Assembly: GCA_900128395.1 (NCBI GenBank)
Contig: LT649239.1
Coordinates: 1-64,000, forward strand
Length of the DNA stretch: 64,000 nt
Direction: 5' to 3'
DNA from: Stramenopiles sp. TOSAG23-2
Taxonomy: Eukaryota
The notes under the pieces were generated by a model. It was not told the origin of the DNA and ran no database searches. It saw only the letters and a list, made by a program, of their open reading frames with translations. The first letter of the stretch is position 1. Each line of letters begins with the position of its first letter. The position numbers were made by a program, and so were the translations under genes. This document shows, piece after piece, positions 9,564 through 62,681 of the stretch.

Positions 9564-10172
9564 ATGTCTACCAATAACGAACCACCAACACAACATTTAG
9601 CACATCATTTTAGATATATGGCCATGTATCATAAACATTGCTGCGCGTGTTTAATTAAAGCAATACAAGAAAAGATGCCTGATGGTGAGACAGGTGATGT
9701 TAATAATAATTTGTACAAAAAAAATGTGTCTCTGTTTTTTAATTCTATACATGGAACCATGAACCATTTATTAGGAGGTGATGAGATATGGTATGGTCGT
9801 ATAAACGGTAGTGAAGTGCCAAAGGATATATTTCCAATCTATTTATTAGATGGTGTTGAGCTAGGAAGAAAGTGGGAAGAAAGATATGAAAACAGAAATG
9901 AATTATTTGAAAAATTATTAGGACAATGTGATAGGTGGATCGAACTGTTGAAAGATAAAGATGATGCATGGTGTATTGCCAATATAACGTATCATGATAC
10001 GGAAGGTGTTGCTACAAATCTTGTACGTGCATCAGGCTTAACACAAGTGTTTAATCATGGAACGCATCATCGTGGACAAATTTCAGCTGTATTTTCAAAA
10101 TTCAATTTTGAGTGTCCTTCTTTTGATTTTCAATCATTGCAAGATAAGTTTTTAAAATATCAAGTTGTGTAA
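9564..10172 (+). CDS. DinB/YfiT-family metalloprotein
   Basis: FFNSIHGTMNHLL..DEIW and FNHGTHHRGQ His motifs; first ATG at 9564 (MSTNN). Confidence 0.9.
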   Translation: MSTNNEPPTQHLAHHFRYMAMYHKHCCACLIKAIQEKMPDGETGDVNNNLYKKNVSLFFNSIHGTMNHLLGGDEIWYGRINGSEVPKDIFPIYLLDGVELGRKWEERYENRNELFEKLLGQCDRWIELLKDKDDAWCIANITYHDTEGVATNLVRASGLTQVFNHGTHHRGQISAVFSKFNFECPSFDFQSLQDKFLKYQVV

Positions 10173-38431: not shown

Positions 38432-41400
38432 ATGCACCAGCAAGTGCACTCACAAGTGCACCCACAACACGTCAATAGTAAAATCGAAGAAGCAACAATG
38501 CATCCACAAGAACGATTTTTATTACAATCTGCGATTGAAAGAATTTGGCATCAATATGATATTAACAAATCAAACTCAATTGATGCAAAAGAAGCAAAAC
38601 AAATGATAATTGATATCACAGGACATAAAAAAATATCAAAGCACGTAACGGCATTCATCGCTCATATTGAAAGTGAGGCATATGAAACAACTGGCCAAGA
38701 ACCTAACGGAGTATTGGAAAAGAATGAATTATTGAACTTTTTAGAACACGGTATTCAGCTGAATAAAGAGCAACGAGAAATATATGCAAAAAAAGGAGCA
38801 TTCCAAAAAACACTAGTTGATTTTTTCGTTGGATGCGATAAATTAATGGATGAAATATGCGATGAACATAAAGTATTATTGATTAAGTACATTGATTCAA
38901 TATGGAGTAAATATGATGTAGATAATAGTAAAAGTATAGGCGTGCAAGAGATCAAGCAATTAATATTGGACATTACCGGTCATGAAAATGTAACTGAAGA
39001 GGAGTGTAGTAATTTTGTAGCATACATAGAAAGTCAATCAAGTGGAGAAGCCAATGGTGAAATAGAAAAAGAAGAATTATTTCATTTTTGGAAGATGCTA
39101 TTTCAATGAGTGAAAATGAGCGTAAAGATTTTGGAAGTCGAAGTAAATTCCATGCAACATTAGTTGACTTTATTAATGGCATAGATAAAGCAAGACATGG
39201 CTTTGCGATAAATAAGAGAAATGCAATTGTTGATTTTATATGGTCAAAGTATAGTACCGATAATTCTAATTCAATTGATGAAGAGGTATCAAAACAAATG
39301 ATTTTAGATGTAACTGGGCATAAAACAGTTGGATCAAAATGTTTGACGAAATTTATAACCTATATAGAAAGCGAATCATATGCTGTAACAGGCAAAACTG
39401 CGAATGGAAAGTTGGAGAAACAAGAGATATTTCACTTTATAAAAGAAGGTGAAAAACTTACGACGAAGCAGCGTAAGCTATATGCAGAACAAGGACCTTT
39501 TCAAAAATTTATAATTGAGTTTCTCAGCGGCTGCGAAAAGCTAACAGCCAGTATCGAATTACAGTTGGTCGCAAATGATGTCAATGTGACAGATACGAGC
39601 AAGAAAGCAAATCAAAATAGCGATATCAATTCAAAACAAAAAGCAACTAATGATCTACAAGCAAACATACTGACAAAAGAACTTGAAGTCAAAGAGGAAA
39701 CGAAAACGTTGGATGCCACAAGTTTAGGAAATGATATAGAGACGATGGCGGTCGCTGCAAAGCAAGAAGAAGCAAATGTAGAAAACAACATGATCGAATC
39801 AAAAGAAGAAGTCAAAGTGACCGTTGGTGATGAATCGGAGACTATAAATAAGGTAAATCAAATCAGCGTAGGCGATAGGGTCTATGCAGATTGTGATTGG
39901 GATGAGTGGTATCCTGGTGTTGTAGATTCAGTTAATGATGATGGCACATACAATATTAATTTTGACGATGGTGATTATGTTGAAAATGTCTTGGAAGAAC
40001 AAATTGAAATGGCTGGTGAAGAGACAGAGGATCATGTAGATGGAGCAGCACAGGAAATGGATCCAAATGCTATCAACGTAACAGCGACAAATGTAACAAA
40101 AGAAGAAACTAGTTCTATTGAAAACCCAATGGTTGAATTGGGTGCTAAAAATGCTGTTACAGTTGCATCAAATGTTGCAAATTCGGTTAAGTCAAAAAAA
40201 GGAGCATCAAATATGGAATCAAGTTCAAACAACCAAGTAGTTTCTGCATCAGTTGCTGCAACAGTTGAAAAAACTAATACATCAAATGGTATTAAAGCAT
40301 TAAATGTAGAATCAAGTTTAAACAACCAAGTAGTTTCTGCATCAGTTGCTGCAACAGTTGCTGCAACAGTTGAAAAAACTAATATACCAAACGGTATTAA
40401 AGCATCACATGTAGAATCAAGTTCAAACAACCAAGTAGTTGCTGCAACAGTTGAAAAAACTAATACATCAAATGGTATTAAAGCATCAAATGTAGAATCA
40501 AGTTTAAACAACCAAGTAGTTGCAGTTGCTGCATCAGTTGCTGCAACAGTTGAAAAACCTAGTACACCAAATGGTCTTAAAGCATCAAATATAGAATCAA
40601 GTTTAAACAACCAAGAAGTTGTTTCTGCAGCAGTTGAAAAATCTAATACATCAGTTGCTGCATCAGTTGCTGCAACAGTTGAAAAAACTAATACATCAAA
40701 TGGTATTAAAGCATCAAATGTAGAATCAAGTTTAAACAACCAAGTAGTTGCAGTTGCTGCATCAGTTGCTGCAACAGTTGAAAAAACTAATACATCAAAT
40801 GGTATTAAAGCATCAAATGTAGAATCAAGTTTAAACAACCAAGTAGTTGCAGTTGCTGCATCAGTTGCTGCAACAGTTGAAAAAACTAATACATCAAATG
40901 GTATTAAAGCATCAAATGTAGAATCAAGTTTAAACAACCAAGTAGTTGCAGTTGCTGCATCAGTTGCTGCAACAGTTGAAAAAACTAATACATCAAATGG
41001 TATTAAAGCATCAAATGTAGAATCAAGTTTAAACAACCAAGTAGTTGCAGTTGCTGCATCAGTTGCTGCAACAGTTGAAAAAACTAATACATCAAATGGT
41101 ATTAAAGCATCAAATGTAGAATCAAGTTTAAACAACCAAGTAGTTGCAGTTGCTGCATCAGTTGCTGCAACAGTTGAAAAAACTAATACATCAAATGGTA
41201 TTAAAGCATCAAATGTAGAATCAAGTTTAAACAACCAAGTAGTTGCAGTTGCTGCATCAGTTGCTGCAACAGTTGAAAAAACTAATACATCAAATGGTAT
41301 TAAAGCATCAAATGTAGAATCAAGTTTAAACAACCAAGTAGTTGCAGTTGCTGCATCAGTTGCTGCAACAGTTGAAAAAACTAATACATCAAATGGTATT

Positions 41401-41664
41401 AAAGCATCAAATGTAGAATCAAGTTTAAACAACCAAGTAGTTGCAGTTGCTGCATCAGTTGCTGCAACAGTTGAAAAAACTAATACATCAAATGGTATTA
41501 AAGCATCAAATGTAGAATCAAGTTTAAACAACCAAGTAGTTGCAGTTGCTGCATCAGTTGCTGCAACAGTTGAAAAAACTAATACATCAAATGGTATTAA
41601 AGCATCAAATGTAGAATCAAGTTTAAACAACCAAGTAGTTGCAGTTGCTGTATTATTTATATAA
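38432..41664 (+). CDS. EF-hand repeat protein with a Tudor-like domain and a 33-aa tandem repeat tail; single-base frameshift near 39085
   Basis: Three IW..YD..S.SID..E units; one extra T in cattttt gives ..EELFHFLEDAIS.. and fuses the two ORFs; VGDRVYAD..WYPG..DGTYNINFDDGD. Confidence 0.75.
40203..41650 (+). repeat. Coding minisatellite, 99-bp unit; about 10 identical copies (c.40654-41650) preceded by about 4 degenerate copies
   Basis: gaaaaaactaatacatc recurs at 40681, 40780 and onward; encodes ATVEKTNTSNGIKASNVESSLNNQVVAVAASVA. Confidence 0.95.
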
Positions 41665-43514: not shown

Positions 43515-44267
43515 ATGGGATTGGATGAAACATTAAATTTATTGCAAGAATCGTTAAAACGTTATCAAGCTTTAAATTATTTGGCAAGAAAAGATCAAAA
43601 CTATAAAAAACCTGGTATTAGTAACTTGTTCACCACACAATGTAAAGAAATAGAATTATATTTGGCAATTGCAGAATGTAAACGTCTGATGGCTACACAG
43701 CTGGAGGATGATTATGATAAAATTAAAAAATTAAAGGAAGCAGATAATGATTGCCAGGTTGCATATGCGTGTGTCAGAAAGTTAACACCTGATTCAGAAG
43801 ATGAAACACGACAAATGAAAATAGCTGAAGGAGATGTGTTGAAAATTTTAGGAACGATATATGCGCAAGCAAAACTATATCATGCAAGTAAAGATAGTTA
43901 TAAACAAGCGTCAAAATTATATGAAGACAACAACTACGGCGAAGGTGAAGCTTCAATTATGGTGAAAATGACCAAATTAGAAATAGAGCATAATAGAATA
44001 GGTGTATTAATTGATAAAATGAAAAAATTAAAAGCAGCTGGAAATCGAGAAGAGGAACAATTACGTGCTGTATTTAACAAACACGATGTTGATGGTAGTG
44101 GTGATATATCAACGGAAGAATTTAAAGGAATTGCTACTGATTTAGGTACGGTTCCAGAATTAACTGATGATGAATTGAAAGAAGCTGTATCTCAAATTGA
44201 TAAATCAAATGATGGTGAATTTAGTTTCGAAGAGTTATGGACTTGGTGGATTCAAGATAAACTGTAA
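43515..44267 (+). CDS. TPR-like helical protein with two C-terminal EF-hands
   Basis: DVDGSGDISTEE and DKSNDGEFSFEE loops; LGTIY..A..Y..A TPR-like segment. Confidence 0.85.
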   Translation: MGLDETLNLLQESLKRYQALNYLARKDQNYKKPGISNLFTTQCKEIELYLAIAECKRLMATQLEDDYDKIKKLKEADNDCQVAYACVRKLTPDSEDETRQMKIAEGDVLKILGTIYAQAKLYHASKDSYKQASKLYEDNNYGEGEASIMVKMTKLEIEHNRIGVLIDKMKKLKAAGNREEEQLRAVFNKHDVDGSGDISTEEFKGIATDLGTVPELTDDELKEAVSQIDKSNDGEFSFEELWTWWIQDKL

Positions 44268-44660
44268 AAAAATGTTTTTTAATTGACCCGGTTTTTCTGA
44301 GAGACCTTCCAAGGGACAAATAAAATTTTAGCATATTTTAAAATCAAATGATGGTGAATTTAGTTTCGAAGAGTTATGGACTTGGTGGATTCAAGATAAA
44401 CTGTAAAAAAATGTTTTTTAATTGACCCGGTTTTTCTGAGAGACCTTCCAAGGGACAAATAAAATTTTAGCATATTTTAAAATATTAATATATAAGAGTG
44501 TACACAAATTACACGCGCACATAAGTGTCTCCTATATTTACATTTCATCCGTGTACTCCGCAAAAATCAATAATTTAATTTTTTTTTGAAAATTTATTTT
44601 TCCATATTTTATTTCTCAATATTTTTAAGCCAAGAAGATGCCATCAACGCACTCTGGCTT

Positions 44661-45863
44661 TCATTTCATGATTTCAATACTGTATCGTTCCCCAAGACCC
44701 ATTGGTAATAATACACCTGGTTTTAAACGAGCTCTTAATTTACCTTGTTTGTATATTTGTTGTTCATGCATTGGTGTAGTCGATCGATTAAAAATATCAC
44801 GAAGTTTTTCTCCACTGTTCAATGAATGATGATGATATCTGTTGTGTTCATTTCTACCAGTTAAACTTCTGTATTGCACTGGACCAGAAGAGATTTCTCT
44901 TCCTTTCGTTCCAGGTCTAGTAGCTGAAGATGTAGCTGTAGCTGTATATCCCATTGCTCTATTCATATTAACATTATCAGTAGAACTAATGTAAAAGGTA
45001 TTTGGTGTATTCATTGGAGTTTTAAATGGCTTTTTTTCCCATATGGAATCTGCATGGATATCCTCAGGGACAAGACTTTCTCTTACGGATAAGGTTCGGC
45101 TAACGCTCACAACAGTATTACATTGTGAATTTCCGACCCTGGGGGTTGCTGGTGCTGGCATATCAATGATTGATGAGCCACCTGATTCTAACGCATTATC
45201 CTCTTTCTTTTTGTTTTTGCGGCTGTTTGTATTTGGAGTTACCGGTAATGGTGGTTTTCGCTTCGCTCTTCTGCTACTAGTGCTATGACGAAATTTTACA
45301 ATTGGGAGAGATGCGGAAGGATAAAAATTTGGCTTATCAATAACTTCAGATATAGAGTCGATGGAGGTCATAGGTCGTTGCGTATTATTGAGAATGCCCT
45401 TGCCGTTGAGATGCGGAAGGATAAAAATTTGGCTTATCAATAACTTCAGATATAGAGTCGATGGAGGTCATAGGTCGTTGCGTATTATTGAGAATGCCCT
45501 TGCCGTTCGTTGCATACTTTAAATCGGACATGCTGCTACTAGTAGTAATGCCATTGTTTATTGCCGTTGAAGGTGACATTGGGCCGCCTGTTGTTGATGG
45601 TCTCAGCTTCGGTTCAACCGTAACACTTGTTAACAAAGGTGTTGTTGTCTGTTGAATTTTTTTGTTGGTGTGCCATTCGAAGTTGCAGCTGGTGGTTCTA
45701 CATCATGTGCATCACCATTGGATGTTAATACACGTGGAATATTTACATTGATTTTATTATTACTTGCATTATCATTTTGTTGTTTTTGATTTCCTATTAT
45801 GAATGATGATTCATCCTGTTGTTTATCATCAATGATACTAGTTGCCGGTTGAGATGGATCCAT
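44661..45863 (-). CDS. Hypothetical disordered protein (about 367 aa) split by a 100-bp duplication and a homopolymer frameshift
   Basis: Removing 45308-45407 and adding one A in the A7 run near 45660 joins three ORFs into one frame. Confidence 0.65.
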
Positions 45864-46297
45864 CTTAATGATGTATTTGTGTATTATATATATTTATCTC
45901 AGCACTTTTTCAATGTTTACAAAGAATATATTATAATGTAACGTTACGAAATAATAGAAAACGCGATTGTACCTTATCCCTGAATATAGGAGAGGGGATA
46001 TATATATATAATTTAATTAATATTATAGGTATTTTCACATCTAACAGTTTGTACATATATATGTATTTTTATTTTATATATATGTGTGCTCCATCAACGG
46101 TACTAACAGGTACATTTAACAAAAAAATACATGGAAAATTGGGTATTCGTTAAGGTAAAAAGTCATTATCACAATCAACAAATTTCTACTAAAATCAATC
46201 TTCGTTATCACGTTTTTTTGTACAAAGTGCCATATGAAGTAACTTCTATCGTAGTATTAGTATAGTGGGTATTAATATTTAATAATAATAATGGTAC

Positions 46298-47879
46298 AAA
46301 GGACTTTTTTATAAATAATTGTATCTATATCCTTTTGGGATATGCGTTAGAAGCGTAATTCTTTTCCTTATAGATACTCAAAGTTTCAGTTTATATCGAT
46401 ATAAAAGGACTTTTTTATAAATAATTGTATCTATATCCTTTTGGGATATGCGTTAGAAGCGTAATTCTTTTCCTTATAGATACTCAAAGTTTCAGTTTAT
46501 ATCGATATATATTTATTTATATATTTGTGTTTGAAATTGGGATTATTTTATTAATTAATTGATTATTTATTGGTGTTTTTTAGTTAAATTATCAAAAAAT
46601 AGCCTTCGTTAATAAGATAAGAAAAAATTAAATAAAATTGTATATAGCGGCAAGCAAATTGGTGTTTTTAGAAAGATATTGTGTATATAGGATATGATAA
46701 TAGATTTGATTGATTTAAACCAGTTAGTTTCCGTTAAAACAGATTCAAAAAAAAAAAGTGCAAAAAAAGTGCTTTTAAACGATTTACTCCATTTTAATTA
46801 TTTATTTTGGAGCATTTTACCAGTTGGTTCAGATCCATCTGGAGGGTTTAAATTCTACAGTATCATAGTTTTTAAATCGAATATGGTAGTTAATAATAAT
46901 AGAATATATGTAGGCGAATTATTGTTATATTATCTATGTAATCAAAATGATACAAAAATTACTGATAAATTTAGAATGTCAAGCGTTATAATTTATCTTA
47001 AAAAAATAATAAGTTTTATTTCACCTCATAATATCATTTGGATGTTAATTGATATTTTTGATGGTTTTAATAAAGCATTTCTAAGCAGACGTAGCAATTT
47101 AATTGTTGCTAAATTACGAGCATACGACGATTTTTTTTTAGTTAAATCGAGTTCCACAGTAAGAAATGAAGCTTCATTAAATGAATCCTTCGAGTTAAAT
47201 TTAAGTTTCTACGCCGAAATCGTAGTAAACAGTTACAACAATTGCATTGCATGGTTTTTCATCAAATTTTTGGTTTTCCATTCAATGCTCATTAATTTTA
47301 ATAGTACGTGTATTTCCAACAATACATTAGTGACTACTTATATAAATTCCTTGTACAGTGTTTTGCGTCAAATTGAGAACGTTGATTGCGCGTTTTTAAA
47401 TTGGAGTAAATATACAGTACCGTCGATGAATATTAAATATACGGTTTTTTATCAAAATTTTGGTTTTCCGTATTTATTTAATATGAAAGTAGTATTTTTT
47501 AGGACGTGTAGCGATACACTAGTACCTACTTACAATTATCCTTTATGGATAATCCTTGTACAACTTTTTTATCTTCGATAAAATAAATGTACCGTCAGAT
47601 ATTAAATTATCTAAATGCGTGTTCGGGGACGAAGGCTCTAAAGTCAAGGTTGGAGCTGTTTTTATTCATTTAATCATTGAATATTTTAGGTTTGATCATA
47701 GAGGATTATCAAAATTGGAAGTAACACACCAAATTAAGATAATTTTTTATGGGAGAATGTTATTTAATGAATAAATGGAGGCGAGATCCGGAGTAGGGAA
47801 TTTAGAATACAGTACAGATAGGGAAGAGAGTAAAATTTTTAAATTATCCTAGGACATACTACTGAAAAAAAAAAAAAAA
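46298..47879 (+). mobile_element. Retroposed insertion with a poly(A) tail and a 17-bp target-site duplication
   Basis: aataataataatggtac at 46281-46297 and 47880-47896; A-run 47865-47881 directly abuts the right copy. Confidence 0.75.
46694..47581 (+). CDS. Orphan 295-aa F/L/I/N-rich ORF inside the retroposed insert, possibly continued by frameshift to 47774
   Basis: 888-nt stop-free frame in very AT-rich DNA is unlikely by chance; no recognisable family. Confidence 0.55.
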   Translation: MIIDLIDLNQLVSVKTDSKKKSAKKVLLNDLLHFNYLFWSILPVGSDPSGGFKFYSIIVFKSNMVVNNNRIYVGELLLYYLCNQNDTKITDKFRMSSVIIYLKKIISFISPHNIIWMLIDIFDGFNKAFLSRRSNLIVAKLRAYDDFFLVKSSSTVRNEASLNESFELNLSFYAEIVVNSYNNCIAWFFIKFLVFHSMLINFNSTCISNNTLVTTYINSLYSVLRQIENVDCAFLNWSKYTVPSMNIKYTVFYQNFGFPYLFNMKVVFFRTCSDTLVPTYNYPLWIILVQLFYLR

Positions 47880-48475
47880 AATAATAATAATGGTACTTGT
47901 ATAATAAATGGTAATAAATGGACCAACTAATACCACATTTCAATGCCTTTTCATTCATATATATAATGTACATGATATACAATCTACACAGGGAGAGGTT
48001 GTAGATAATTGTAATATCACCACTGTGTTGAATATGTACACATTGTTTAAGAGATATAACAGTAGAACAAGATAATATATCTATAGTTGGAGACTATATA
48101 TATATATATATATATATAAAGAACATTACGAAGATATAATATATAACATCATTTTTTTGTTAATTTTAATATAATAATATTAAAAATTACGTACATTTGG
48201 TTGTGTTTACAAACATTTGGTTGGTTTTATTTTATTTCATATCATCTTTATTCGTCATTTTTTTGTTAATTTTAATATAATAATATTAAAAATTACGTAC
48301 ATTTGGTTGTGTTTACAAACATTTGGTTGGTTTTATTTTATTTCATATCATCTTTATTCGTAATTTATCATCCGATATAATATAATACTATACCTAGTAT
48401 ACATATATTTGGACATATATTTTTAGATACATTATACGAAGATATATGTAAAAAGAAATACGATCGTATAACACT

Positions 48476-49075
48476 TTGTTACGTCGTGCTAAGATTCAAG
48501 TACCTAGACCAATTCATCCTAGTTTTAAAACACATTCATTTATGGTTATTTATGCTGAAAATTCAGTTGACAATATAAAATCTGGAAAACATATTGGTCA
48601 AGATGTAGAAAAATCATTATTGTCTCGCCAACAAACAATTACATCTGTTGTTTCAGAAGCTGAATATGTTGTAATGATTTTGACAGGAGGTGTATTAGAA
48701 GATGAGAGTTGTCTTCGTAATTTACAAATAGTTTTGGATGAAGAAAAAGAATTATTGTTCATCATGTCAAAAGTAGATGATTGGGTATTTGAAGCTAGTG
48801 ATACTGAAATAAAAGCAAATAATAAGACTGCTAAAACAATACGAAAGATGTTAAATGGTCATGAAGTTATGTCGTATCGACCAAAAGGTGGTAAGCGTAA
48901 TTATGAACATGAATCAATGATGAATGAAATGATGATGGAACGTTTGGGTGTGGCAACAGTAATAGAAGAAGTTGGAACAACAATGAACGGGCAGGAGAAT
49001 GGTGTGGTGAATACGGAAGAAGAAGAAGAGAAAGTTAATGTTAATGTTGATGATGATGAACACAAAGAAGATTGA
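48476..49075 (+). pseudogene. 3' fragment of a gene with a TIR-like domain; no clear start, in-frame TAA just upstream
   Basis: EAEYVVMILTGGVL..CLRNL..EEKELLFI and YR..YEHESMM resemble TIR_2-type motifs; the ORF starts at TTG. Confidence 0.4.
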
Positions 49076-50908: not shown

Positions 50909-52276
50909 ATGACTGTTGGTCTCCTCTTCCTGCTTTTCGTAGCGTCGGCCCAGTCCATAAGCGTGTGGGACAGTGAAATTGTGTGGCATTCCCAGGTTGA
51001 TCAAGAGAAATATGTCATGCAACAAGTGTATGGCGACTCTGTTCCCCTCGGAACAGGGTATTTTGTTGAGATTGGAGCCGCGGACGGAATCCATATGAGC
51101 AACACCTTGACACTCGAAAAAGCGTTCGGGTGGACCGGTCTCTGCGTCGAGCCCTCTCGTCAATATGCGCGTTTGGTAACAAGCGGACGGAGGTGTGCCA
51201 TGAGGAATGAGCCGCTTTCGAATATATCTGGCATCGTTGTCGATTTTTTTGAAGATGTCCAGAACAGCAGCGTGGATATCCAAGTCGCTGCAAATCGCCT
51301 AAAAAATGATAATAACGGTGAAATGACATTGGGAGCAAATCCAAGCTCAAGAAATCTGTACAGCGGCATCCGCGAGCATTTGCTGTACTCGACCCGGGGA
51401 GAAGTGACGCGTCGTGTAACGCGAACGTTGGAAGAAGTGATGGATGAACATCATGCGCCTCCTTTTGTCCATTTCTTATCGCTCGATACGGAAGGGACCG
51501 AATTCATGATATTGCAGAATTTTAATTTTTCCAAGTACACATTTGGTGCGGTAGCCGTAGAGCACAACCAGCAGGGCGAAAAGCGAGAACAAATTAGACT
51601 ATTGCTGATAGCCCATGGGTACGTTCGAACATTTTGCGTGGAGATGGACGACATATACGTGCACGCCAGCCTCGTATTAGCACGGGGTATTTTTGTAGAT
51701 CCACGTATGTGCGACACAAAATTGCTTCGCTTGAAATGCCCGCAACCCGAAGCCAATAAGCAAATATTAGTACAGGCCTGCCTGGCTTACAAGGGGTTGG
51801 ATGAAAATGCGTGCCGCCAGCTGCAGGAGAGAATGCTCTCCAAGTCCCACGAGTGCGGAAAGATGAGTTTGTCGGAACGCAGTCTACTGGAAGTTGTCGT
51901 TCCGGTGCTATTGAACCAAGACTTCTACTTTAAAGTTGGACTGGAAGATAAGACAGACAAGGTAGTGATACCTCTGGGGCCGTCAAGTAATCTTGAAACC
52001 GTGACTGCCGAGTTTTGTACCAAGCACGCCCTAAGTAGCGAGCAATGCGAAAGGTTGCTCTTGGAGCTAGAAAAATTCATTCGGCAGTCTTTGCAGGTTG
52101 AGACTCAGAAAAGTATTTTAGAGGTCGTCCGGTATATGAAAAAGAAAGGCACGTGTGCTCACTCCCTGTCTATATTGGATCGCTCGGCAGTTGACCCAAA
52201 TAACTCCCAGGCTGCATTTTTGGAGGGGTGCAATAGGCTAGCAGCACATGCGTCTGAGTTAAAAAGAATATTTTAA
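50909..52276 (+). CDS. FkbM/Methyltransf_21-family SAM methyltransferase with signal peptide; GC-rich relative to the host
   Basis: YFVEIGAADG..SNTLTLEK..GWTGLCVEP; FLSLDTEGTEFMIL..FGAVAVEHN. Confidence 0.9.
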   Translation: MTVGLLFLLFVASAQSISVWDSEIVWHSQVDQEKYVMQQVYGDSVPLGTGYFVEIGAADGIHMSNTLTLEKAFGWTGLCVEPSRQYARLVTSGRRCAMRNEPLSNISGIVVDFFEDVQNSSVDIQVAANRLKNDNNGEMTLGANPSSRNLYSGIREHLLYSTRGEVTRRVTRTLEEVMDEHHAPPFVHFLSLDTEGTEFMILQNFNFSKYTFGAVAVEHNQQGEKREQIRLLLIAHGYVRTFCVEMDDIYVHASLVLARGIFVDPRMCDTKLLRLKCPQPEANKQILVQACLAYKGLDENACRQLQERMLSKSHECGKMSLSERSLLEVVVPVLLNQDFYFKVGLEDKTDKVVIPLGPSSNLETVTAEFCTKHALSSEQCERLLLELEKFIRQSLQVETQKSILEVVRYMKKKGTCAHSLSILDRSAVDPNNSQAAFLEGCNRLAAHASELKRIF

Positions 52277-56927: not shown

Positions 56928-57714
56928 TACTAATTTAGTATACTAATTTATGTATATTTGATAGAGAGGTATTGGATATTACCAAAAAGCGGATATTCTT
57001 AGTTTATTCCGCTATAATATTTTTTGGATTCCTATTATAACATAGCCACAGCACTAGCTACGATTGAAATTATTCATAAAAGATATCAGATGAGATCGGG
57101 AGATTCTTCTCGAAATATCGAAGAAGAAGATTTGTTCTATGAACTATGATGAATAATGATATATTGCATTTATATATACATCAATAGACACAAAGGATGG
57201 AAAGGTGCAGCATAGATAGTAAGAATACAAAAACGGAAGTCTTTTTTTCTGGCTAGCTGTCTTTTTTATCTCTCTGTCTCTCTCTCTCTGTGTGTGTCAA
57301 GAAAAAATAATTAATACTAATTTAGTATACTAATTTATGTATATTTGATAGAGAGGTATTGGATATTACCAAAAAGCGGATATTCTTAAGTTTATTCCGC
57401 TATAATAATTTTTGGATTCATATTATAAGATAGACACAGCACTATCTACGATTGAAATTATTCATAAAAGATATCAGATGAGATCGGGAGATTAAGGTAA
57501 AATCTCGAAATATCGAAGAAGATTTGTTCTATGAACTATGAATAAAGATATATTGCATTTATATATATATCAATAGACACAAAAGATGGAAAGGTGCAGC
57601 ATAGATAGTAAGAATATAAAAACGGAAGAAGGAAGTCTTTTTTCTGGCTAGCTGTCTTTTTTATCTCTCTCTATCTCTCTGTCTCTCTCTCTCTGTGTGT
57701 GTCAAGAAAAAATA
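56928..57714. repeat. Diverged tandem duplication with a unit of about 387 bp
   Basis: tactaatttagtatactaatttatg at 56928 and 57315; the copies differ by SNPs and small indels. Confidence 0.9.
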
Positions 57715-57813
57715 TTTATGTACGTATAGTCGTGTATAATATATATATAGTAATAATTAATAATTTACTGGCACGTATTTACTTTAGTTAGTCAATATCA
57801 TATCAATTGGTAT

Positions 57814-58272: not shown

Positions 58273-59183
58273 ATAGACTGTATCATATTTATACACGAAG
58301 TTGTCTACACATACTGTGTACAAAGAGAGACTGTTTTTAATCAAAAGCACCTGTCGCATATTGTAGTTGGGTGGAAATTGTAGAGAGTATGAAACATATA
58401 TATCGTATGAGATGCATCATTATGAACGCTTCATATTATGATTTATTACTCTCTCTAACATAAAAAAAGATATCATATATATATAATATCATATATATAT
58501 GATATATATCATCTGACTTCGATTTTAGTGAGATAGATATTTGAATATTGGCTCAAGCACTGTAATCCCAAGGACCAAGGAGAGAGGAGAGTGTATAGAG
58601 GGTGAATTGTGAATTGTTGTAACACTGTGGGTAGAAATAAAAAATATCTGACTTCGATTTTAGTGAGATAGATATTTGAATATTGGCTCAAGCACTGTAA
58701 TCCCAAGGACCAAGGAGAGAGGAGAGTGTATAGAGGGTGAATTGTGAATTGTTGTAACACTGTGGGTAGAAATAAAAAATTAAAGAGATACGCGTACATT
58801 TATAATATATACGATTTGTAATATTTTTAAAATTAATACTCGTACTTCTCGTACGTATAATTTTTTAGAGACCGGTGTGCCGGTGTGTGTGTAATAACAC
58901 ATTAAATGTGGTTTCCTCAGTCTCTGAAATTTTTACCGATCCTATCATATATGGCATAATATAATGACACACATATGATCATATGATATGCATAATAATA
59001 ACATCCACATGCATCCATGTTAATATTATGAAGTTTATTCTCCCTTCCATTTGTCACTCTCTACATGGTATATGAAAGAACTGATATATGCATATATATA
59101 TATTAATATAATATTTTTTAATATAAATACATTGAAGTCCGCTGTATGATAGATCTAGGATCATCTACGCATATATAGTATTT

Positions 59184-61752
59184 TTACAAACCAATACAAT
59201 AATCTTTATCATCGGGGCAAAATTTACCATGGAAATTTGCTGCTAATTTTCCTGGCATATCTGCGGTGCCAAGCGTTGCCATTGTTTTTCCATCCAAGAT
59301 ATACAATGTTGAATGGTCTTTTATACTATTATACCCGACAAATATCAATGCACCATCATCCTCGCTAACTGGATTTGGATTTGGTACGAATAATGGTTCA
59401 CATACATAGACATTGTCTTCTTGAAATTTCGCCATCACTTCCCCTTTTTCAATATCAACTTTAATAATCTGATCAATAAAATCAGAACTTCCATCATGCC
59501 AATGTGTGTTTGCATCGACGAAACTAGCACCCCATGTATAACGATGAGGCTCCATGTGATAATTGACCCAATTAAATGTAGCCATTTCAAATGTTTTATC
59601 GATGACATCGAGCATCGACGAAACTAGCACCCCATGTATAACGATGAGGCTCCATGTGATAATTGACCCAATTAAATGTAGCCATTTCAAATGTTTTATC
59701 GATGACATCGACACATGTTGGTCTACCTGTAAATACAGGGACGGTACAACGTGTTAAACGCGCTTGCGAATAGGTACCGACATAATTTTTTGGTTGGTCC
59801 ACTAAATTTTCCAAATACATACCATAGGTTATCAACGTATCGTTTTGATACTTAGATAAATCTACAATGATATTATCGTTCCCATCATCGTACGCATTTA
59901 AAATATGATAGACGAACCATGCACCATCAGCAGAATCGACTGAGCGGATCAATGTTCCATTATTTCGATCTAAAATATGAAATTTCACTGGAATCGTATC
60001 ATCCCATGTCATTGCATCTATCACTTTTTTTGCACTCAAAAATTTTAAAAAATGATAATGCAATGGACATTGTATCAACAAAACGTATTTCTTCGTTAAA
60101 CCAAAACTGTGTATGAAAGACGTCATTTTATCTTTCACAGTTCCTATAATTTTACGAGGTGGCAACGGCCCTGTACCGTTAAACCCAGATTCTTGATATG
60201 TCCAAACATTGTAATGCGCACCACCATTAACACCGTCGTTCCATCCAAATTCCAGCCAATAATGTTTCTTTTCATGTCGATCGTATCGGCCATGTGCTAC
60301 GCCTAAACCTAATAAGCCTATTTTTTCAATCTCATCATCAGACCAAGCTTCATTTGCCCCGCCAATTGTTTCCAATGTTACAGGATCAAATTGAGTAAAT
60401 AAATTTTCATCTGTTGTTGCAATATATTTATTATCAAATTTCCATAAATTTACTAATGGGTTGGATGCAAATTTTTCTTGCCATTTTGGTATAGGCGATG
60501 ATGACTTTTTGCTATTCTTTTGTTGTTTTTTATCTCCAATAACAACTTGATCCATTGTTGTTGTTATTGTTGCCGTCACTTTATCATCGCCATCCGTTAC
60601 CGTTCTTGTCGTTGTAGTATTTGGTGCTTCGATCGGTAAATGGGGTCGTGGTCCTGGGGTTTTAGGTGTGCCATATCCAGGTTCTGCATATTCATTTGAT
60701 GTTTCGCTTTTATGGAAAGATGTTGTATTTAAATATTTACTTAAATGTACAACTGTGCCTTTCTCACCATTAATCTCCCAACGATGAACTTGTGCCCATC
60801 CATCATTCCAATGGCGTATTTGATCATTTCCATTTTCATATTTTCCTGGTGAATTGCGCAATAATGCACCATTAAGCCATTTAGGTATCGTACCTTGCAA
60901 TTTGATCTCATTTCGTGCTACTTCAGGCGTTGTTTCAAAATAACCACTGGCACGACTAGGTGTTATATATTGAATTGAAGTCGGTGCCGTCATATTAAAT
61001 AGACCATCGACCATTTCAACTTTTGTTTTTAATACCGTATCACTATTTTTAAGCATGGACAATGGGCTTGTACTTGGTACATTCAAAATCGCTTCCTTCA
61101 ACAATTTTACGCCATATTTTTGTTCTGTTGCACTGTACAATAATGTTTTTGTATCTTTTACGCTGATTCCATATGTATTGATAATTTGATGCATCAATGG
61201 AATTTTAATTGCATTGTCATTAAACGTTGCATCAATAATAACCGCAGCTGCCTCGTTATTTGTTACGTCTTTTACGACTACATGTTGTAACTCTGGTGAA
61301 GTGTTACGATCCCATTCAAACGTAGCCATCTTTTTAGGTAATCCCCATACATTAATACCAGCATCCTTTGCCATTTCATTATCAACGTATATAGCATGGA
61401 CCCAATTTCCTTTTTTTCCTTCATATTGGACAGTTGCACATATGAATATTAACTCACTATATTCAATAGTTGACTGGTTATTATATTTTGCAATATATAA
61501 TGAACCTTCTGTTAATCCACTACCTTCCTTTGTTTCAACAATATTAAAGTCAGATGGGACACATTCTTTTGCAACGGACAATGGAACATCAAACACTTGC
61601 ACATATGCATTGCCTTTTTGCACCCACGGTGGTGAAGGGAACGATTCTGTTGTCACTTGCGCAGAATATGACGGTACCATATTAACAAACAAACAACTTA
61701 TCACAAGTAGTATTACTATCATCATTTTCTCATTATTATTATATTTCCACAT
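59184..61752 (-). CDS. Signal peptide + acetoacetate decarboxylase/NXD1-like domain + carotenoid cleavage oxygenase (RPE65/BCO family), about 822 aa after removing the 100-bp duplication 59512-59611
   Basis: PPW..KG..EYSELI..WVHAIYVDN..VWGLPKK; GTIPKWLNGALLRNSPG, HWNDG, VAHG, FIHSFGLT, VYHILNAY, EPLFVP..EDDG, NFHGKF. Confidence 0.88.
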
Positions 61753-62681
61753 GTTTGAGTATAATCTATAATATACAATATGTATATATATCACGATACT
61801 TATCACAAGTAGTATTACTATCATCATTTTCTCATTATTATTATATTTCCACATGTTTGAGTATAATCTATAATATACAATATGTATATATATCACGATA
61901 CTTTAATTATACGTCTATGTGTTGTGTTTCTATTATTTAATCAATAATCTACAATAACATTAAATATAGATTAAAACACAATTGCAATTTATTATTATAC
62001 TTCTTCTATGTTTCACCGTGTTGATGGTATATTTCGATAATATATAAATGCACAAATAATACCAGGTACTATTATATTTTTAATTAAAATGATATAAAAT
62101 TCATCAAAAATAATAATCTGAATCACCACCACGGTTTTGCTGAGAAATATTGGTGCTAATCACCTCGTATTTGTATTGTTGAAAATATAATATCAGGGAG
62201 AATATAATATTAATATTATACCGGAAGACGATGTTTGATGCAAGGTATCTATAGCAGGGCAGGTCCAAATATTTTTCTTCCAGATTTTTCAGCCGACGCG
62301 TGTGCACGTGCCATAAAATTATTATTTTGGAAAAATTAATAAAATGCCTATCCATTTGACCAATTTCCAAAGCTTTTCAAGCCTGTGTCCATTGTATTTA
62401 GACAGTACAGCATTGTTTTCTTTACTCCTATCTGAAATATGTTTAAGGAGTCTATTTGAAAAATGAGTGGTTATGGTAGTGTAATCCCTATCAAGTTTTA
62501 TTACTTAATTAATCGCTTATGTGTATTATTATTTATTATTATTAGGCACTTAGCAATAATTTGAAATAATAATAATTGATGATGTGCTGCAAAGATACGA
62601 ATCTAAAATCTAAATCAGATGTAATATATTCGCCGTTTTTATCGTGATAGTGAACGTAGAAAACATTTGTTACAAATAATG

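Follow-up and report, generated by a model that had tools for sequence, protein, structure and literature searches.

A probable non-autonomous poly(A) retroposon in Stramenopiles sp. TOSAG23-2 sharing its 3′ tail with long interspersed nuclear elements from metagenomes

Interspersed nuclear elements, both long and short (LINEs and SINEs), retrotranspose by well-established steps, in which binding through the tail of the RNA is followed by a nick in the target, priming of reverse transcription and a cut in the second strand. HAL1-type elements are non-autonomous derivatives of LINEs that have retained one open reading frame (ORF). For SINE/LINE pairs, two papers (PMC3747384, PMC5786205) describe non-autonomous elements whose 3′ tail is derived from the partner LINE. 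Three further papers describe composite or deletion-derived non-autonomous elements, namely SVA (PMC3287187), LAVA (PMC5174737) and derivatives of R2 (PMC3414825). Here we analyse a 64,000-nt stretch of DNA from Stramenopiles sp. TOSAG23-2 (contig LT649239.1, positions 1 to 64,000; "the window"), in which an insert with a poly(A) tail lies between two copies of a target-site duplication (TSD) at 46281-46297 and 47880-47896. We conclude, with a probability of roughly 0.85, that the insert is a copy of a non-autonomous poly(A) retroposon, itself multi-copy and about 1476 bp long, that was mobilised in trans by a LINE through target-primed reverse transcription.

The window element resembles the dependent member of a SINE/LINE pair in sharing about 450 nt of LINE 3′ sequence at 78-90% identity, in its poly(A) tail and TSD and in having no reverse transcriptase (RT) of its own. 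Classical SINEs are non-coding and shorter than about 700 bp, whereas the window element is about 1476 bp long and contains a frame of 295 codons. Because it lacks a head resembling tRNA, 5S RNA or 7SL RNA, has a run of six T near its 5′ end, is about 1.5 kb long and holds a long open frame, we do not regard it as a classical SINE transcribed by RNA polymerase III (Pol III). It differs equally from an autonomous LINE, since it encodes neither RT nor endonuclease. Like HAL1-type elements, it is a poly(A) element that lacks autonomy and has one long frame, part of which (residues 116-227 here) was inherited from the partner LINE; however, the inherited frame lies 3′ of ORF2, not 5′ like ORF1, and shows no clear constraint at the protein level. 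The window element is like SVA, LAVA and the R2 derivatives in being kilobase-sized, a mosaic of different origins and apparently dependent on LINE proteins. It is unlike them in host lineage, sequence and partner LINE, all of which are unrelated, in having neither a variable number of tandem repeats nor site specificity, and in that its mosaic includes two copies of a LINE module in different frames. Biologically, this is a known kind of element and the family is a new member; what is unusual is the open frame 3′ of ORF2 and its reuse in frame here.

The anatomy of the insertion can be read directly from the window. The 17-mer AATAATAATAATGGTAC occurs at 46281-46297 and at 47880-47896, the two copies being 100% identical, and the bases immediately 5′ of the left copy (46278-46280) are TTT. 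The perfect duplication and the TTT had both been reported by a first-pass annotation, made from the letters of the DNA, and both are confirmed. That annotation had also placed a run of 17 A before the right copy. The run does exist (47865-47881), but the last two of its A belong to the repeat itself, and the tail that precedes the right copy has 15 A (47865-47879, plus strand). If microsatellites are left out, together with a tandem array in coding sequence and a repeat of about 390 nt, this is the only exact 17-mer pair in the window with a spacing of 300-5000 nt. Thirty windows simulated with a Markov-2 model contained six such pairs, or 0.2 per 64 kb at any position, and we therefore do not attribute the pair to chance. 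The earlier reading of TSD and poly(A) as the mark of target-primed reverse transcription thus stands. A repeat search of the insert ends found no terminal direct repeats of the long terminal repeat type and no terminal inverted repeats, except for the artefactual 106-bp tandem copy described below. The insert occupies a divergent intergenic region between a minus-strand gene that starts at 45863 and a plus-strand ORF at 48476; the window has 32% GC and long, apparently uninterrupted, eukaryote-like ORFs with Asn, Ser and Thr tracts.

Immediately after the left TSD copy comes a perfect 106-bp tandem duplication (46298-46403 is identical to 46404-46509), which we conclude is an artefact of joining contigs and not biology. 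The contigs of sequencing run X1 come from an independent k-mer assembly of that run. Among them, the locus contig (record 1, 5358 nt) contains the left junction, matching 45700-46327 with 0 differences, and goes no further than 46327. Record 3 (1441 nt), the contig of the element, opens with the same 30 nt and then runs on continuously through 46404-47844. A true tandem repeat would not allow that unbroken run, and the 106-nt unit must therefore be single, as it is in X1, where no listed piece covers 46328-46403. The copy at 46298-46403 (plus strand) is accordingly redundant, and the element is about 1476 bp long rather than 1582 bp. The first-pass annotation had overlooked the duplication. 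A duplicated 5′ module like that of the Dictyostelium element TRE5-A was considered for the 106-bp repeat and rejected, the duplication being an assembly artefact.

The same pattern recurs across the window. Tandem Repeats Finder reported 16 rows, of which seven are arrays of 2.0-2.1 copies with a period of 100-139 nt and 99-100% identity (44202-44483, 45308-45507, 46298-46509, 48149-48366, 58511-58780, 59512-59711 and 61696-61903). At 45308-45507, a duplicated unit of 100 nt breaks up the minus-strand gene at 44661-45863 and leaves one peptide repeated in two ORFs; at 61696-61903, owing to a duplicated unit of 102 nt, the ORF at 59596-61854 has its N-terminus twice. All seven look like contig ends that were joined without merging their overlap.

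A clue to the nature of the element lies in its 3′ end. A metagenome scan with the C-terminal module that its ORF shares with other sequences matched 28 stretches, of which five were confirmed (loci L001 to L005). All five align by blastn with the insert's last 452 nt, at 90.2% identity in L004, 88.5% in L005, 80.7% in L002, 80.5% in L001 and 78.2% in L003. In both L002 and L003 the homology extends as far as a poly(A), about 18-19 nt long, whose starting point coincides with that of the poly(A) in the window element. This tail (47428-47864, plus strand) comprises a copy of the module, a near-invariant block of about 70 nt and a terminal hairpin at 47794-47851. In L001, L003 and L004, it sits 3′ of a long ORF. 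That of L001 (1144 aa, its 5′ end cut by the end of the contig) contains an RT core and is 59% identical, over its full length, to the 1763-aa protein P0039, whose ORF of 5289 nt lies on a contig of 6713 nt. P0039 in turn has an apurinic-type endonuclease (APE) domain (PF03372; 25.1 bits, the cutoff being 24.5), and its residues 449-695 match the RTs of solved R2 retrotransposon proteins (E 9e-13). L002 is a 5′-truncated copy of the L001 type (93% identity over 1077 nt), and L005 is a 5′-truncated copy of the L004 type with an internal deletion of 184 nt. By these comparisons, the shared tail is the 3′ end of a LINE family that encodes APE and RT and has at least three subtypes. An exact 22-nt motif from the tail had 0 matches in genome contigs and 0 in viral contigs, and a protein-pattern scan of a prokaryote genome collection gave 585 pattern matches, 0 of which were confirmed. 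We note that the LINE also has a natural internal-deletion derivative, P0035 (74 aa), in which residues 1-47, 83% identical to the endonuclease start of P0039 (residues 31-77), are directly fused to the 3′ module.

The first-pass annotation had pointed to an AATAAA about 90 nt before the tail, overlapping the stop of a 72-aa ORF (47556-47774, plus strand), and to an 888-nt ORF (46694-47581, plus strand; 295 aa) upstream, all of which are indeed present. The hexamer lies at 47770-47775, 90 nt 5′ of the A-run. The equivalent positions read AATAAC in L001 and L002 and AATAAT in L003, and we rejected AATAAA as the polyadenylation signal on the ground that it is not conserved in these loci.

Upstream of the tail, the homology to LINEs continues in one subtype. 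Positions 740-1057 of the insert (window 47037-47354, plus strand) match L004 2097-2438 at 75% identity by blastn; the L004 segment lies downstream of its ORF2, and residues 116-227 of the window ORF are 60% identical to P0011, the ORF 3′ of ORF2 in L004. Within this part of the element is a degenerate first copy of the module (about 47246-47364), the second copy (from 47436) being the one that opens the tail; the two are read in different frames inside the single 295-aa ORF. The remaining 5′ region, 46404-47036 (633 nt, plus strand), consists of about 290 nt before the ATG and the first 115 codons. It had no match by blastn in L001-L005 or the rest of the window, nor in P0039, and residues 1-115 of the ORF match family members only in a phmmer search of 1.84 billion representatives. 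We suggest that this region probably holds the promoter. On these alignments the element is a mosaic, made of a family-specific 5′ part of about 630 nt, about 320 nt from the 3′ region of an L004-type LINE and a structured LINE tail of about 450 nt. No RT or endonuclease of its own was found, the ORFs having no Pfam match and no similarity to P0039 (best E 2.3). A tRNA-, 5S- or 7SL-like head was likewise not detected by ARAGORN (0 genes) or Rfam (0 matches), and the run of six T occupies nucleotides 9-14 of the element.

The element is multi-copy and has a fixed 5′ end. Record 2 of X1 (11131 nt) has a different upstream flank, its last 30 nt being those with which the locus contig ends (46298-46327), and in record 18 of the marine metagenome X3 a third flank is joined at the same first base of the element. 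With three flanks joined to one and the same first base, a defined start of transcription and several insertions are the likely explanation. Record 4 of X1 (784 nt) has in common with the element only its last 74 nt (47771-47844, 4 differences), and other repeats in the X1 data therefore carry the same tail. No second copy was found in the window by self-search. Part of the stretch is present in 20 of the 24 listed sequencing runs, from 14 studies, with half or more of the sampled words in five. In the metatranscriptome X15, short contigs are identical or nearly so to parts of the element body, and many lie on the tail; because DNA can occur in such libraries, they are no proof of transcription. 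Contig depth peaks at 46438-46601 in X7 and X1, in an AT-rich, low-complexity stretch where summed contig depth is not copy number. Taken with the LINE 3′ tail and the missing RT and endonuclease, the other copies with exactly the same 5′ end bear out the earlier suggestion that this retroelement family is new and non-autonomous.

It is as RNA that the tail is conserved. Of the 25 pairs predicted in the module, 6 have changed on both sides and still pair, for example ACGG...CCGT to ATGG...CCAT and AATTATCC...GGATAAT to AATTACCC...GGGTAAT. The distal tail has such two-sided, pairing-preserving changes at 5 of 71 predicted pairs, and the 14 bp of the terminal hairpin are invariant. For block 1 of the module, the L001-L003 types use one reading frame, whereas the L004 type and the first copy of the window element use another. 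We conclude that the conserved C-terminal "peptide" of about 50 aa in these ORFs is the translation of RNA hairpins. The recurrent "peptide" motifs in the 3′ frames of the LINEs were also seen to coincide with short inverted repeats, such as ATGGATT...AATCCAT in L002 near 9828-9850.

We next asked whether the 295-aa ORF encodes a protein. The ORF matches no Pfam family and has no usable match in the ESM Atlas. A word-indexed protein search gave 14 proteins at E <= 0.01 among 411 candidates, and phmmer gave 14 at E <= 0.001. Of the latter, 13 belong to the same family (57-98% identity) or are small ORFs with unrelated N-termini that share only the last ~50 residues; P0038, at E 3e-5 the weakest match, is a repetitive protein. 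The related ORFs lie on short contigs, the members of the cluster being on 0.7-2.3 kb with one exception of 16.9 kb. A frame of 295 codons was reached in 0 of 2000 Markov-2 simulations of the element (maximum 175); taken apart, the 115 codons of the 5′-specific part were reached in 7 of 2000 and the 180 codons of the LINE-derived part in 0 of 2000. The LINEs themselves have open frames in their 3′ regions (L001 3391-3891, L003 2561-3013, L004 1766-2473, L002 9692-10159), all ending inside the conserved 3′ module. At the four loci these frames have 166, 150, 235 and 166 codons, lengths that were reached in 0, 3, 0 and 4 of 2000 simulations, and in L001, L003 and L004 they are in the +1 frame and begin no later than the ORF2 stop.

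Measures of selection give little sign of a constrained protein. Subfamilies of the ORF differ by in-frame indels, an observation subject to ascertainment bias, as the protein collection holds called ORFs only. Variants in other runs affect 17 positions of the ORF; 8 of these are synonymous, where 4.8 would be expected from the types of mutation involved (P 0.066); two control frames gave synonymous counts of 4 and 1. Between L001 and L002, omega is 0.89 for the 3′ ORF, with 1.33 and 0.62 for frame-shifted controls of the same pair, and 0.31 for the end of ORF2; between the window element and L004 it is 0.61 over residues 116-227. AlphaFold2, run on the 295-aa ORF with a 15-row alignment, gave a mean predicted local distance difference test score (pLDDT) of 31.9 and a predicted template-modelling score of 0.26. 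The recognition score from a protein language model was 866, where 2300 is reached by 91 of 100 proteins of known families. Our reading is that the frame is kept open and that its amino acid sequence is at most weakly constrained; a working 295-aa protein seems to us doubtful. The orphan gene of the first-pass annotation is thus a real open frame and at best a candidate gene. The 72-aa ORF, for its part, is not conserved as an ORF: the stop-free stretch of its frame spans 36-75 aa in L001-L005 with no conserved start, it has no Pfam match, and we conclude that it is not a gene but a chance open stretch in the LINE-derived tail.

One could nevertheless propose that the partner LINE family and its derivative maintain and translate a +1 frame that runs from the ORF2 stop, or from just before it, through the structured 3′ RNA, what matters being either a fast-evolving protein or the act of translation itself. 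The over-long stop-free stretches, the in-frame indels and the weak synonymous excess speak for this. The omega values of 0.89 and 0.61 against 0.31, the pLDDT of 31.9, the low recognition score and the appearance of the hairpin motifs in different frames speak against it, and on balance we think it improbable. If it were true, the window element would be a protein-coding non-autonomous retroposon in which a new 115-aa N-terminus is fused in frame to the "3′ ORF" of a LINE.

We suggest the following route for the insertion. An RNA would be transcribed from the fixed 5′ end, probably by RNA polymerase II (Pol II), and then polyadenylated; we infer Pol II over Pol III because of the T6 run at nucleotides 9-14 and the missing tRNA-, 5S- or 7SL-like head. 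The APE and RT protein of the partner LINE, encoded outside the window, would recognise the shared 3′ tail, the poly(A) or both. Its endonuclease would nick the bottom strand at the T-rich/A-rich target (TTT|AATAAT...), and the T-rich 3′ end so released would prime reverse transcription on the poly(A). A cut in the second strand, staggered by 17 bp, would then give rise to the duplication. Whereas the anatomy, the homology of the tail to LINEs with APE and RT and the other copies with their flanks were observed directly, mobilisation in trans, the choice of polymerase and recognition of the tail are what we infer from them.

Several observations weigh against this interpretation. The right junction is not covered by any contig in X1, X3, X7 or X15, the sequence at 47855-47902 having been masked as a repeat, and the empty site (46297 joined to 47897) was not found among the contigs of the same four runs, in which the flanks are barely covered outside X1. 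The support that X1 gives to the left junction is not fully independent if, as may be the case, X1 is the source data of the window; indeed both X1 and X2, the best holders of the stretch, are possibly source data and to that extent would not be independent support. The partner LINE is absent from the 64-kb window by self-search, and its presence in the same genome is hinted at by record 4 of X1 and the metagenome loci. The RT core of L001 was recognised by Pfam RVT_1 with a score (E 0.002, 18.2 bits) that lies below the curated Pfam cutoff. L002, the sole relative whose 5′ truncation point falls within its locus, has no clean TSD, the best match being 14 nt with 2 mismatches and not abutting the boundary.

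Other explanations of the insert were weighed against the same evidence. The element could have arisen by internal deletion of the LINE, such that the LINE's own 5′ untranslated region (UTR), or the start of its coding sequence, became linked to its 3′ region and now forms the 5′ ~630 nt. P0035 shows that deletions of this kind occur in the family, the 184-nt deletion in L005 has its 3′ breakpoint (L004 2107) within about 10 nt of the point where homology with the window element starts, and the contig of P0039 leaves about 670 nt of 5′ sequence unseen if its 3′ region is as long as that of L001. However, neither the window ORF nor the whole insert is similar to P0039, and residues 1-115 have no match outside the family among the 1.84 billion representatives; of the LINE DNA compared, that of L001, L003 and L004 starts within ORF2, where each contig ends. 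We regard such an origin as unlikely, though it deserves to be taken seriously; it is in any case a variant of the trans-mobilised retroposon that we favour, since the element would still be non-autonomous and the two differ only in where the 5′ part came from.

The insert might instead be a processed pseudogene, a one-off retrocopy that a LINE made of an mRNA from the cell, a virus or an organelle. TSD and poly(A) also mark processed pseudogenes, and the ORF is intact and far longer than chance allows. This explanation is nonetheless largely refuted, and we consider it very improbable: the last 450-840 nt are LINE 3′ sequence and not a cellular 3′ UTR, there are several copies with other flanks and the same 5′ end, diverged subfamilies occur on many contigs, and searches with Pfam, phmmer and the ESM Atlas turned up neither a parent gene nor a relative from a virus or a mitochondrion. 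The retroposed RNA-virus or organellar mRNA of the first-pass annotation likewise finds no support, there being no Pfam match and 13 of the 14 protein matches being the element family or its C-terminal module. We find it hardly credible that the element is an assembly chimera, spliced into the locus through the low-complexity AAT and poly(A) sequence. The assembly is certainly imperfect, with its seven perfect tandem duplications of 100-139 nt, one of them exactly at the 5′ end of the element, and the right junction lacks a covering contig in the runs examined; but the left junction lies within one contig of an independent k-mer assembly with no differences, and an identical 17-mer on both sides is predicted by insertion and not by a chimera. 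A retroposon mobilised in trans by a LINE remains the explanation we prefer.

The window contains other features. A 455-aa ORF at 50909-52276 (plus strand) has an FkbM-type methyltransferase domain (PF05050, E 1.6e-11) and lies in an island of 46-50% GC in a genome of 32% GC; the island could be horizontally acquired or otherwise foreign DNA. The coding tandem array set aside above lies at 40203-41650 (plus strand) within the ORF at 39106-41664 and is built of 99-nt units, about ten of them perfect copies accompanied by older, diverged ones; it encodes a 33-aa repeat within the C-terminal half of an 852-aa protein. The direct repeat of about 390 nt is at 56928-57715, where identical blocks, each 17-74 nt in length, recur 387-405 nt apart. 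At 98-461 there are two tandem copies (91% identity) of a 183-nt unit with CCCTAAA-like, telomere-type motifs, and the window may start near a chromosome end.

For work with this assembly, the perfect tandem duplications of 100-139 nt expose a systematic artefact that breaks genes, and gene models taken from it will carry false frameshifts as a result. A retroposon family and its likely LINE partner are now defined, and their annotation, which gene callers give as "hypothetical proteins" for both, can now be put right. The locus records a clean retrotransposition event, probably a recent one, in an AT-rich eukaryote of the sea that is known chiefly from marine metagenomes, and it indicates that a LINE and a retroposon dependent on it have been active in this lineage.

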